A stretch of 38,720 nucleotides of DNA, taken from a virus (Duplodnaviria > Heunggongvirae > Uroviricota > Caudoviricetes). Every line of letters starts with the position of its first letter. Positions within the stretch are counted from its first letter, which is position 1. Location of the stretch: the IMG/VR virus record IMGVR_UViG_2563366844_000005; one strand, written 5' to 3'. The translations under genes were made by a program, and so were the position numbers. A model generated the notes under the pieces. It had not been told where the DNA came from, ran no database searches, and worked only from the letters and a program-made list of their open reading frames with translations. Below, piece by piece: positions 24,575-27,817 of the stretch.

Positions 24575-24856
24575 ATGAGCGATACTTATTTATCTAAAAA
24601 AGCTTTTGCTGATATTCTGGCCATCAGACAGGTTGTCATACTCCTGGTTAACGATTTACCAGATGAGAAAAAAGCAATTATTAAAGATTTGCTTACTAAA
24701 TCAGCTGACACTTTTTCATCAAAAAAATTACCCGAATCCCTGGAAACCCCGCAGGAAGTTTTAGACGAAATGAACAAATTGATTGCCGAATCATGCGCTA
24801 CTCTTGCTGAGACAATTTTAATTCCTGAAGAAGCTTCGTCGTCATACCATCAATAG
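24575..24856 (+). CDS. Hypothetical small acidic protein on the opposite strand inside the lysis cassette
   Basis: 93 aa; AT-rich; AAGGA SD 6 nt before the ATG; 3' end overlaps the 3' end of the convergent 174-aa gene by 59 nt. Confidence 0.5.
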   Translation: MSDTYLSKKAFADILAIRQVVILLVNDLPDEKKAIIKDLLTKSADTFSSKKLPESLETPQEVLDEMNKLIAESCATLAETILIPEEASSSYHQ

Positions 24857-25322
24857 TTTGCTGAACAGCTTTAGCAACAAACGCCACCCCATTTTCGTGG
24901 TGGCGTTGTCGCTCATTTACGGCTCGCATCGCGGCAACTATCGCACGACTTATGTCATCCCCGGCGTTTTTTTCCCGCCCTGCGCGCCTGGTGTTGGCTT
25001 TAACTGCACTATCAAAACCCGCAAGATGAGGACGATCGTGTTTATTGGCAGAATTTTCAATCTTAATGGAGTACTGATGCTGCAGATAAGACTCAACTTT
25101 TTCTGACAATTTTTCTGCCACTCCCAGGAAGACCTGCCTGACGCTCATTCTGGCTGCTGCCTCATAAAACTCCAGCGCGGCACCTTCAACACGGTCCATG
25201 GTGATGACCAGGTCAAAAATTTCACCGTCAAAGCGTTTTTTGTCCCGTAATGCTACAGTTACCGCAACTTTATTCTCAAAATTGCGGATCCCTTTCACAA
25301 TCAGTTCATAGTTTTGAGTCAT
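24798..25322 (-). CDS. Hypothetical protein between holin and endolysin
   Basis: 174-aa soluble protein; ATG 5 nt after the holin stop with a GGGGAGAG SD. Confidence 0.6.
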   Translation of the reverse strand: MTQNYELIVKGIRNFENKVAVTVALRDKKRFDGEIFDLVITMDRVEGAALEFYEAAARMSVRQVFLGVAEKLSEKVESYLQHQYSIKIENSANKHDRPHLAGFDSAVKANTRRAGREKNAGDDISRAIVAAMRAVNERQRHHENGVAFVAKAVQQTIDGMTTKLLQELKLSQQE

Positions 25323-25326
25323 TGAA

Positions 25327-25542
25327 TTACTCTCCCCGTGCAGCCTTACGCTTGTCTTCTCTGATTTTGAAGTACAGATTTGTCAGATAAGTCAGGAAGC
25401 CCAGAACCAGACTCCCCAGTACACCAATCGCAGCCCACTGTGACGGACTGACCTGATCAAGCCACTGTAAAAACCAGTAGCCAGCACTGCCTGCGGAGGT
25501 GCCGTAGGCAATGCCCGTTGAAATTTTGTCCATGGATTTCAT
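25327..25542 (-). CDS. Class II holin (phage 21 S-like pinholin) with dual-start motif
   Basis: 71 aa, MKSMDK... with two in-frame Met codons (1 and 4), two transmembrane segments, charged C-terminus; strong GGAGGTGAGG SD. Confidence 0.85.
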
Positions 25543-25811
25543 AGCCTCACCTCCGCAAATAACGGATGGCGTAATTCTTATATCGGGAAGGGGAAAAAGA
25601 AGGCCGCAGCGTAACTATCACTGAGGAGTTCAGGATAGCCAGTGGCTACGGCTCAGTTTGGGTTGTGCTGTTGCTGGGCGGCGATGACGCCTGTACGCAT
25701 TTGGTAATCCGGTTCTGCTTCCGGCATTCGCTTAATTCAGCACAACGGAAAGAGCACTCGGTACATTTAAGCCAAGCCCCATAAGGGAGAATGCTCTTAC
25801 CTGTTGTGCAG

Positions 25812-25848
25812 AAAAAAAACCACACGGCAGCGGGTTTAAGCTGTGTGG
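25812..25848 (-). terminator. Strong intrinsic terminator in the late-operon leader (candidate tR')
   Basis: Minus-strand hairpin CCACAC...GUGUGG followed by eight U, about 270 nt upstream of the holin. Confidence 0.55.
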
Positions 25849-25951
25849 CGAAGTTACCTCTCTTCACCAAGAATTCGGTAATAAAATAACTTGTGGCGCT
25901 CTCGTTTTTATGCCGATAAAATAAACGGTCCACTTTCAAATGGAGCGATTC

Positions 25952-26872
25952 ATGATTTTTCTCAGAACTGAAAACGGCATCGAGAAACTTGAAAACTGGG
26001 AGGAAATTATATCCAGACCAAACTTTGTCACCGCTATAGACAAAGGAGTTCAACAACTTGAGGAGATAATTGGTTACTACAAATTTAAAGAAGAAATCCA
26101 CTGTGGTCTAACTGGTTGCAACCAACCACATCAAATGGGTTATATTGTAAAAACATCTAGTGGCATTGAAACCAACATCGGAAATAAATGTGGTAAAAAC
26201 GAATTTGGTGTGGAATTTGGTGAAAACGTTCTTAGTTTCAATAAACTTATGCAACTCGAAACCAATCGGGAAATTATTAGTACCGCAAAAAGTAAATGTG
26301 AAGCGTGGCAAAAAAATATTGAAACGATACGAAATATCAAACCCACAATAGATTATCTATCTTCTACCATCGAAAATAGTAAAAATTCCAATTACGCCGG
26401 AAGACTTGGTGCTACAGAAATTCGTTTTTTGACCAAGAGCCAGACAGGCCTTGTAACCCTTTCTGAAGTGGAAACTGATAAGAATACCAAAACAATTCTG
26501 TTCGCAATGAATGAACACATGCGCGAGTCTGGAGAAGCAATAAGTGAATTCTACATAGGAAAAGTATCATTTAGTCATGTTCTTTTACCAGAAAACAATC
26601 TTCGTGATTTTTTTGTTGCGCTCAAAGAAGATCTAAAAAAAATTCAGTGTATTGATCTACAAACAGCCCCAAGCCCAGAAATTTCTAATGTTGCCAAAAT
26701 TGCCAGTTCAATCGAAGAACGAATCAAACGATTAAAAAAACTGAAACATGAAGCCAGTAAATTCCTAACTAAAAAAAATCTGCGTCCCATCGCAAACAAA
26801 ATAAAATACTCATCGACAGCGGATGAACTTGAATTCCATAATTTCGAACGCTTTTTAAACGGGCTGAAATGA
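25952..26872 (+). CDS. Hypothetical 307-aa protein, AT-rich moron antisense to the late operon
   Basis: Uninterrupted ORF in a visibly AT-rich block; second ATG at 25952 has a GGAG SD at 6 nt; Lys/Glu/Asn/Ile-rich; no family recognised; stable hairpin immediately 3'. Confidence 0.65.
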   Translation: MIFLRTENGIEKLENWEEIISRPNFVTAIDKGVQQLEEIIGYYKFKEEIHCGLTGCNQPHQMGYIVKTSSGIETNIGNKCGKNEFGVEFGENVLSFNKLMQLETNREIISTAKSKCEAWQKNIETIRNIKPTIDYLSSTIENSKNSNYAGRLGATEIRFLTKSQTGLVTLSEVETDKNTKTILFAMNEHMRESGEAISEFYIGKVSFSHVLLPENNLRDFFVALKEDLKKIQCIDLQTAPSPEISNVAKIASSIEERIKRLKKLKHEASKFLTKKNLRPIANKIKYSSTADELEFHNFERFLNGLK

Positions 26873-26896
26873 TAGAAGCCCCGAAAGGGGCTTCTA
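26873..26896. terminator. Stable 10-bp stem with GAAA tetraloop after the moron gene (possible bidirectional terminator or RNA end element)
   Basis: TAGAAGCCCC-GAAA-GGGGCTTCTA; no strong U-tract on either side. Confidence 0.45.
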
Positions 26897-26986
26897 TCAA
26901 AATCATTTACGCATTATTCCGCATGCTCAAAAGAATACATGACAGATTCGGACAAAATCAAGTGCAATGTCGCAAAAAGTCTAAGT

Positions 26987-27817
26987 TTAGTTCACATCAT
27001 CACCAAAACTTGTCACATTCTGAAAAGCAATATCGGCCTTATGCTCTTCCTGGTGACAAATGTCAACCAGAGAATCAAGAAACGGCTTCCAATTACGTGT
27101 CCATGTCCTGACATGTAGCTCGGGTATCCGCTTCAGTACAACTTTATATACTGTGGTAGACGGTATCGTGGAAAATCCATTTCCGCTACAACGTTCGCAG
27201 ATTTTAAACACTGGCACACCACGCTCGCTTGTGGCTTTGCGGTCCAGTACCTCTCCCTTTCCACCACAACGACACCTGGCACTTATCACTCCCTTCCCTT
27301 TACATACATCGCAAACGACTGGTACAACTTCTGTTACCTCTGTCCATTTCTCCCAGTCTGACGGTCGAACAGCACGGGAGCGACTGGCCCAATATGGTGC
27401 TTTACCCCATGGGTATGAAACCTTACGAATGACCTGCTTACGGGGTGTTAGTCCGGTACCACTGCAACTATGGCATGTTACGCTGGTGGACGCCGATCGG
27501 GAATACTCAGCAAAAGCAAACTGCGCCAGCACCAGCATACACCAGCCAAATTCACCACCAGCTGCTTTACGCACATTCTTCGGTGCAATTTCCATCGCGT
27601 GACGCGCCAGCGCCTGGACTGCCATCTGCTCATCAGTCTTGCTGATACCTGCCTTCCCGAAGAAGGCCACCAGACCAAACCGCTCACGATTGCTGGTGGT
27701 ACCAATAGCCGCCATAACATCGGTGCCTGTAAGACGTTCCGGAGAGGTTCCTTTCACATCATCGCCGATATACATTCCCTGAGGACTGAAGTATTTTAGG
27801 GATGCCTCAAGCTTCAT
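26987..27817 (-). CDS. Putative late-gene regulator at the Q position, with DnaJ-type zinc-finger repeats
   Basis: 276 aa; four Cys repeats (CHSCSGTG, CDVCKGKG, CRCGGKG, CERCSGNG); last gene before the late leader and lysis genes. Q-family membership not verified. Confidence 0.4.
   Translation of the reverse strand: MKLEASLKYFSPQGMYIGDDVKGTSPERLTGTDVMAAIGTTSNRERFGLVAFFGKAGISKTDEQMAVQALARHAMEIAPKNVRKAAGGEFGWCMLVLAQFAFAEYSRSASTSVTCHSCSGTGLTPRKQVIRKVSYPWGKAPYWASRSRAVRPSDWEKWTEVTEVVPVVCDVCKGKGVISARCRCGGKGEVLDRKATSERGVPVFKICERCSGNGFSTIPSTTVYKVVLKRIPELHVRTWTRNWKPFLDSLVDICHQEEHKADIAFQNVTSFGDDVN

Follow-up and report, generated by a model that had tools for sequence, protein, structure and literature searches.

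Between the Q antiterminator and the holin of a lambdoid prophage lies a single gene that runs against the late operon around it. This raises two questions: how can such a gene be expressed inside a transcription unit of opposite direction, and what does its product do? The window, i.e. the whole stretch of 38,720 nucleotides analysed here, is a complete lambdoid prophage on the minus strand. The Q gene (26987..27817, minus strand; PF03589, E=6e-52) is convergent with the cargo gene, and the two stop codons are 114 nt apart. On the other side, a P21-type (class II; S21-type) holin (25327..25542, minus strand; PF04971, E=1.4e-35) leads the series of lysis genes that follow the cassette in the late operon, with lysozyme and Rz genes further on. 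These two profile matches bear out an earlier note, made from the letters of the window, that had placed the gene antisense between a Q-like regulator and a holin. Rfam and tRNA scans over the whole window were empty.

The cargo gene occupies positions 25952..26872 of the plus strand and is defined by its ORF and translation, by a profile match to the phrog_7003 family and by homologues. Its 921 nt include the stop codon, so that the product has 306 residues and not 307 as first stated. An in-frame ATG at 25940 would give a longer ORF. The start was placed at 25952 because all homologues and phrog_7003 begin at the methionine of MIFLRT. A Shine-Dalgarno sequence, GGAG (25942..25945, plus strand), stands 6 nt before this ATG and is invariant in five E. 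coli carriers. The gene is therefore a plus-strand ORF with its own ribosome binding site, as had been noticed. An overlapping minus-strand ORF (25646..26101, 151 aa) was treated as spurious. The GC content of the gene is 0.356 and its GC3 0.296, against 0.50-0.53 for the Q, holin, lysozyme, primase and helicase genes and 0.502 for the whole window, which confirms that the gene is AT-rich compared with its neighbours among the late genes. In five E. coli alleles, dN/dS is 0.08-0.12 (pairs with dS of 0.24-1.6). Such values show that we are dealing with a working protein-coding gene and not with a chance ORF; judging from these substitution rates, it is under purifying selection.

The gene was found antisense to the late operon, convergent with Q and abutting a terminator, in every Enterobacterales/Morganellaceae prophage examined. 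Besides the window, these loci come from E. coli (L002, L043-L047), Salmonella (L048-L050; the exact protein is found in 870 blocks of the index), Enterobacter (L051-L053), Serratia, Pectobacterium and Providencia (L003, L004, L009), and Phytobacter, Yersinia, Morganella and Proteus (L010-L012, L016, L017); L039 and L042 complete the set. The adjoining Q belongs to either of two families, PF03589 or DUF1133/PF06530, and the similarity of the cargo proteins does not follow the Q type. The holins beside the carriers belong to at least six families, and replication, lysis and packaging modules vary freely. The earlier description of the gene as an autonomous antisense insert in this slot can be kept, but the insert is not a one-off: in many prophages of the Enterobacterales it has long accompanied Q.

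The sequences around the gene suggest how it could be regulated. Just past the stop codon of Q, on the minus strand, a PR'-like late promoter (26932..26961) is composed of TTGATT (26961-26956), an 18-nt spacer with TTTGTCCGAA, and TATTCT (26937-26932). Within the spacer, TTTGTCCGAA is a candidate Q-binding element. The block is kept in E. coli, Yersinia and Morganella prophages of the same Q family, whether or not they carry the cargo gene. It also resembles phi80, the Q of which is 41% identical to that of the window and the record of which annotates pR' (-35, QBE/Q-binding site, -10) and a terminator in identical layout. A scan with a strict sigma-70 consensus missed this PR'-like promoter.

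Downstream of PR' on the minus strand, a hairpin (26870..26899, both strands) with a perfect 13-bp stem and a GAAA loop overlaps the stop codon of the cargo gene. Its predicted folding energy is -24.7 kcal/mol (z=-7.6 on the plus strand and z=-6.4 on the minus strand). The GAAA hairpin previously seen 3' of the gene is thus real, but it is not merely the gene's own terminator, since it occupies the tR' position downstream of the PR'-like promoter. According to this layout, the cargo gene ends inside the tR' hairpin of the late operon, and the same hairpin would also terminate plus-strand transcription of the cargo gene. Its termination efficiency is uncertain because the U-tract is degenerate on both strands in the window. 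At the tR' position of eight other carriers (L003, L004, L009-L012, L016, L017) and of L041, which has no cargo gene, a canonical GC stem is followed by a minus-strand T-run, and several of these terminators are T-rich on the plus strand too.

On the 5' side of the gene, a second intrinsic terminator of the minus strand (25812..25848) consists of a 9-bp stem (25848-25820) with an 11-nt loop, followed by T8 (25819-25812). It folds with -12.9 kcal/mol (z=-2.9) and corresponds to the minus-strand terminator reported earlier at this place. Most other E. coli carriers become homologous to the window from about 25813, which coincides with this terminator. The alignment suggests that the terminator marks the left boundary of the module and that the cassette is bracketed by two minus-strand terminators. 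By eye, a T-tailed minus-strand hairpin at the same place is apparent in L001 and L043, and not in L044 and L045. The long imperfect hairpin also mentioned 5' of the gene is present at about 25722-25806, but it is modest (z about -2.2) and lies outside the cassette, because it belongs to a lambda-like segment common to more than 1200 E. coli genomes. As a side observation, a highly conserved non-coding stretch of 160 bp upstream of the holin (25600..25758) shares 95% identity with lambda 44845-45003, a region located between tR' and S, and matches part of phage P7 too; a 1441-bp query containing this stretch matches 1223 of 5426 complete E. coli genomes.

Ahead of the cargo gene, the alignment of five carriers revealed a conserved block on the plus strand (25885..25925), with TTGTGG ... 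GATAAAAT and TAAAAT at 25917-25922. This block contains the best candidate for a cargo gene promoter, a tentative assignment since the match to sigma-70 is weak. A consensus scan ahead of the gene found no plus-strand promoter.

Read along the minus strand, the order is therefore Q, the PR'-like promoter, a short leader, the hairpin at the tR' position, the antisense cargo gene, the second terminator, then the holin and lysis genes. The cargo gene lies on the opposite strand inside a unit driven by PR' and Q, which is the layout of a noncontiguous operon. These observations support the idea of an AT-rich insert, autonomous and antisense, between Q and the holin. Our preferred reading, which we regard as plausible and slightly short of an even chance, is that of an antisense cargo gene expressed in the lysogen from a noncontiguous operon, the product of which is probably a non-enzymatic immunity or exclusion protein disarmed by Q-driven late transcription. 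The gene would be a self-contained piece of cargo (moron), placed back to front in the leader of a late operon that depends on Q. As long as the prophage is dormant, transcription from PR' would stop at tR', and the cargo gene could be transcribed from its own weak promoter. After induction, RNA polymerase modified by Q would read through both terminators and travel head-on through the cargo gene. This read-through would collide with the cargo transcript or mask it, so that cargo expression would be lowered during late protein synthesis. Stray antisense transcripts arising within the AT-rich gene would be stopped by the second terminator before they reach the lysis genes. We infer these regulatory steps from the sequence and from the precedent of TaiEcA, described below. 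Two features of the window speak against them: the promoter of the cargo gene is a weak candidate only, and the U-tract of the tR' hairpin is degenerate.

The constant association with Q also leads to the main rival of this proposal, a role in late regulation. The cargo protein could be a phage-intrinsic regulator tied to Q, which would, for example, restrain late transcription or lysis in the lysogen, block trans-activation of the prophage's PR' by the Q of a superinfecting phage, or exclude phages having the same Q. It would then be an analogue, at the level of Q, of HK022 Nun, and convergent transcription over PR' and Q could add to the effect. The invariable place beside Q and PR' in all Enterobacterales prophages examined, with two Q families, argues for such a role. 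Comparison of synonymous divergence points in the same direction: dS values for the cargo gene and for Q are 0.24 vs 0.21, 0.77 vs 0.64 and 1.29 vs 1.35, so that the cargo gene has diverged in step with Q, a linkage that also fits our preferred reading. Finally, an exchange of alleles has involved both genes. A 314-aa family member that is only 26% identical occupies the same slot in phage vB_EcoS-611R1 and in 22 other E. coli genomes, and Q is a mosaic there. Its first two thirds are 98% identical to Q of the window, and the block corresponding to 26900..27174, i.e. the last third of Q and PR', was swapped together with the downstream cargo allele. Either allele is found in about 38 of 5426 complete E. 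coli genomes. Many of the strains with the swapped block are STEC, including an O157 strain.

Against a regulator tied to Q, the joint exchange with the C-terminus of Q is expected from physical linkage alone. Further, the closely related, functional-looking prophage of E. coli 2012EL-2448 (L041), which serves as a relative lacking the insert, has the same Q, PR' and tR' and no cargo gene; the gene is frameshifted in phage phi467; and members of the family are found far from any Q, as described below. Weighing these points, we find a regulator tied to Q unlikely. Against our preferred reading, the strict association with Q could equally mean a service to the phage's own late regulation.

The same slot is known for other cargo. 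In Stx2f prophages, the gene is located between Q and stxA2f (phi467, L001 6140-7014; E. coli 2015C-4136CT1, L046 3640-4560), in the order Q, cargo gene, stxA2f, stxB2f, tRNAs and holin. This agrees with the idea, put forward in the earlier note, that the gene sits where Stx inserts. The gene is intact in human STEC isolates, and in phage phi467 a frameshift splits it into two annotated CDS. Because the gene stands between Q and stxA2f, Q-dependent transcription of stx2f has to cross an antisense gene of about 1 kb and the second terminator. The gene, its promoter and the terminators could therefore influence toxin output. In a published comparison of Stx2f prophages with phi467, the antiterminator and the region upstream of stx2f are unmentioned. 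Prophage L002 carries iss in the Q-to-holin slot. In relatives such as L041, L043 and L045, the stretch downstream of Q contains a DNA methyltransferase gene (intact or truncated), tRNA-Ile/Arg, a TerB-family gene, a SASA-family esterase gene, or stx2f. Since the cargo downstream of Q varies in relatives with or without the cargo gene, the region is a cargo hotspot. In E. coli M8 (L047), the cassette was found in a decayed prophage beside an IS200/IS605 transposase gene and iraM; the gene is annotated there from a shorter start (738 nt) and may be truncated or mis-started. The same 1188-bp DNA match as in E. coli M8 was obtained with other mouse gut isolates (hits H5-H8).

This neighbourhood brings in a further explanation, namely a lysogenic-conversion factor that helps the host in matters other than phages (for instance virulence, stress tolerance or metabolism), like Stx or Iss/Bor-like cargo. 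The presence of toxin or fitness genes in the slot of relatives (stx2f in L001 and L046, iss in L002), the foreign AT-rich composition of the gene and the occurrence of STEC and gut isolates among its carriers are consistent with this explanation. The properties of the protein and of its family are less favourable to it. The protein is predicted to be soluble (34.9 kDa, pI 8.1), and neither a signal peptide nor a hydrophobic or membrane segment is predicted. It has no enzymatic or toxin-like domain, and the family occurs widely in free-living Proteobacteria of sea and soil, which share no host niche. We consider a conversion factor of this kind distinctly improbable.

The antisense cassette may not be the only AT-rich insert of the late operon. 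A second AT-rich antisense ORF (24575..24856, plus strand; GC 0.369; 93 aa; phrog_2572, function not described) lies inside the lysis cassette, between a DUF1327/YdfR gene and the lysozyme gene, and has 59 nt in common with the 3' end of the DUF1327 gene. In E. coli KC-Dl-1, a related gene, annotated as hypothetical, is found at the same place (273 nt vs 282). This ORF may be another noncontiguous-operon insert. The DUF1327 (YdfR-family) gene itself (24798..25322, minus strand) encodes 174 residues, of which only residues 1-93 match PF07041. Its relatives in L002 and L039 have about 115 residues, so that the C-terminal 80 residues in the window correspond to an extension or a replacement.

The distribution of the family reaches well beyond the Q slot. 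With an exhaustive profile search (E<=1e-3), the family amounts to 1004 representative clusters at 50% identity, nearly all of them stand-alone proteins of about 300 residues; 103 close homologues of the cargo protein were found. The genome scan for the family was seeded with the closer of two alignments. In one Klebsiella and one Pseudomonas temperate phage, the family member is located near the repressor, in the direction opposite to its neighbours. Another member belongs to a satellite-like element that also carries genes for an integrase, a primase, a small terminase and a capsid protein. In other Proteobacteria, some members stand between housekeeping genes, and others have resolvases, integrases, RepB, ImmA/IrrE-HTH pairs or, in one case, an AbiJ-domain gene nearby. 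The non-phage mobile contexts are those of Alteromonas, Variovorax, Pseudomonas and others. It is these locations on the repressor side, in a satellite-like element and in non-phage mobile contexts that count against a regulator tied to Q.

An all-against-all BLAST comparison of the ±5 neighbouring genes at 33 loci gave no conserved partner apart from Q, as would suit a cargo gene, and small neighbours on the same strand at five loci gave no informative family. PADLOC matches were few among 143 neighbouring genes of the distant members: DpdF, PsyrT (two), Cas3-like, MTase_II, RmrA, SoFic and PD-Lambda-2_B. The matches to DpdF, to one PsyrT and to the Cas3-like family correspond to a single RecQ-like helicase (L021 3799-5736), which matches BrxH too. 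The association of the distant members with defence islands is weak, and in part an artefact of this one helicase. The case illustrates that helicase matches of PADLOC in surveys of neighbourhoods can be housekeeping genes.

What, then, can be said of the protein? Its sole match is phrog_7003 (PHROGs v4), a family with no described function (E=2.8e-111; residues 5-310 of the long ORF on profile positions 1-309). Searches of Pfam and NCBIfam with the cargo protein gave no match, PADLOC-DB v2.0.0 returned 0 families at E<=1, and a Pfam search with 41 diverse members of the family gave noise only. A search of PDB sequences with the profile of the close family gave no match, and no significant structural neighbour was obtained from PDB and BFVD. 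As regards characterised families, the earlier statement that no family could be recognised therefore holds after HMM and structure searches.

Sequence alignments of the family reveal a small set of invariant residues. In 139 members, with a median identity to the query of 25%, these are Y43, C51, C56, H60, G63, G77, C80 and G81; F85 and N276 are also invariant in an alignment of 41 sequences. Residues C51, C56, H60, C80 and G81 are invariant in the alignments of 24, 41 and 139 sequences and follow the pattern C-x4-C-x3-H...C-G. The cysteine cluster that had been suspected in the product is thus real and better defined than expected, with C51, C56, H60 and C80 invariant across the 139 members. 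As the simplest reading, this pattern suggests a structural CCHC zinc site. The AlphaFold (AF2) model has high confidence (pLDDT 92.6, pTM 0.77). In it, a β-rich N-terminal domain of about 85 residues precedes long helices with two short strands, and the putative zinc ligands are carried by the E36-50/E59-68 hairpin and by helix 78-85. The fold is possibly new. A zinc-binding domain associated with a helical domain, as modelled, would fit a binder of nucleic acids or of RNA polymerase, in agreement with a regulatory role beside Q.

Invariant residues are limited to cysteines, histidine, glycines, aromatic residues and one asparagine. No catalytic Asp/Glu/His pattern was found among the conserved positions, nor any match to a catalytic family. 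The one hint of an enzyme came from a broad profile of the family, which gave marginal matches to GTP pyrophosphokinases of the RelQ/RelP type (3l9d, E=0.025; 2be3, E=0.059). These matches span about 90 residues and include the region aligned to the EIQIRT strand. They would make the protein a toxic effector resembling small alarmone synthetases (RelA/SpoT-type), as in fused defence proteins of the CapRel type. However, the RelA_SpoT Pfam family matched none of the 41 diverse members (0/41), even at E<=0.05. The catalytic motifs of the synthetases are absent from the conserved positions. The model is mostly helical in this region, with no nucleotidyltransferase sheet, and no fold match was obtained. 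We judge the RelQ-type match to be due to chance, having no backing from Pfam, fold or motifs; a synthetase-like effector is very hard to credit and close to refuted.

We come back to our preferred reading, an immunity or exclusion protein expressed in the lysogen. The soluble 35-kDa product would work by binding rather than by catalysis, using a β domain stabilised by CCHC-bound zinc and a helical domain. Its target would be a component of an incoming phage, the growth of which would be blocked (superinfection immunity or exclusion), and with the gene placed inside the late operon the resident phage would escape its own weapon. Immunity of the binding type is favoured because there is no catalytic signature, because the family is mobile among phages, satellites and mobile elements, and because divergent alleles occupy one slot. 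The binding and immunity function is less supported than the regulatory account and is the weakest link of the proposal. In particular, dN/dS of about 0.1, with no sign of the diversifying selection often seen in sensors, speaks against it, as do the empty PADLOC search, the lack of similarity to TaiEcA and the single helicase behind a large part of the apparent defence neighbours.

A wider version of the proposal can be formulated. The whole family, about 1000 clusters at 50% identity, of which the cargo gene would be the first recognised member, would consist of single-protein, non-enzymatic anti-phage proteins with a fold not present in PDB or BFVD and with a CCHC zinc sensor, and in Enterobacterales prophages placement at tR' would act as an automatic off-switch that prevents self-targeting. 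We are inclined to doubt this generalisation, without dismissing it. In a still bolder variant, the cargo protein would specifically counter the Q-type antitermination of rival phages.

Should the product prove to be an immunity factor, a widespread defence family with a new fold would be gained, together with a second independent example of a noncontiguous operon by which a prophage arms its host and disarms itself when it turns lytic. Should it have no phenotype, the gene would be one more ordinary hypothetical cargo gene. The evidence so far shows no unusual mechanism; the candidate is well-defined.

Comparison with known systems helps to place the gene. On the function of the gene, or on the Q-to-holin slot as a defence hotspot, the literature searched offered only the precedent of Tai and its noncontiguous operon and general papers on prophage defence. 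TaiEcA (orf63) of phi80 is a tail-assembly-inhibition defence gene located antisense inside a Q-controlled late operon, termed a “noncontiguous operon” (He et al. 2024, PMC11364771). The same paper reports that TaiEcA is produced in the lysogen and that its level drops once Q is expressed. Both TaiEcA and the cargo gene are single prophage genes on the opposite strand of a Q-dependent late operon, with no partner on the same strand. Their Q proteins are 41% identical and the PR'/terminator layout after Q is shared. Both Tai and the cargo family also occur in a satellite-like element. However, TaiEcA has 203 residues, against 306 and a CCHC motif for the cargo protein. In addition, tai is located after the lysis genes and before packaging, whereas the cargo gene comes right after tR', before the holin, and shares the terminator. 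No Ati-like counter-defence gene is evident beside the cargo gene. Homology with Tai was considered and rejected (BLASTP E=0.43; hhalign probability 0.1%).

Other exclusion or abortive-infection genes of lambdoid prophages are lambda rexAB and sieB, HK022 nun, BTP1 bstA and Gifsy-1 hepS. Like the cargo gene, they are accessory genes that stand at mosaic junctions in temperate phages and are expected to be expressed from the prophage. The family members found near the repressor in Klebsiella and Pseudomonas occupy a position of the rex/sie type. By contrast, the cargo protein has no homology with the products of rexAB, sieB, nun, bstA and hepS (PADLOC negative), contains neither a nuclease (HEPN) nor a membrane domain, and belongs to a family whose main slot is the leader of the late operon, not the immunity region.

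With Stx, the cargo gene has in common the insertion region between Q and S, and the two are neighbours in Stx2f phages. They differ in direction: stx is co-directional with late transcription and switched on by Q, whereas the antisense cargo gene would be switched off. The protein is absent from PADLOC-DB v2.0.0, but the gene as such is of a familiar type: antisense cargo carried by a prophage within its late operon, at the slot used by Stx.
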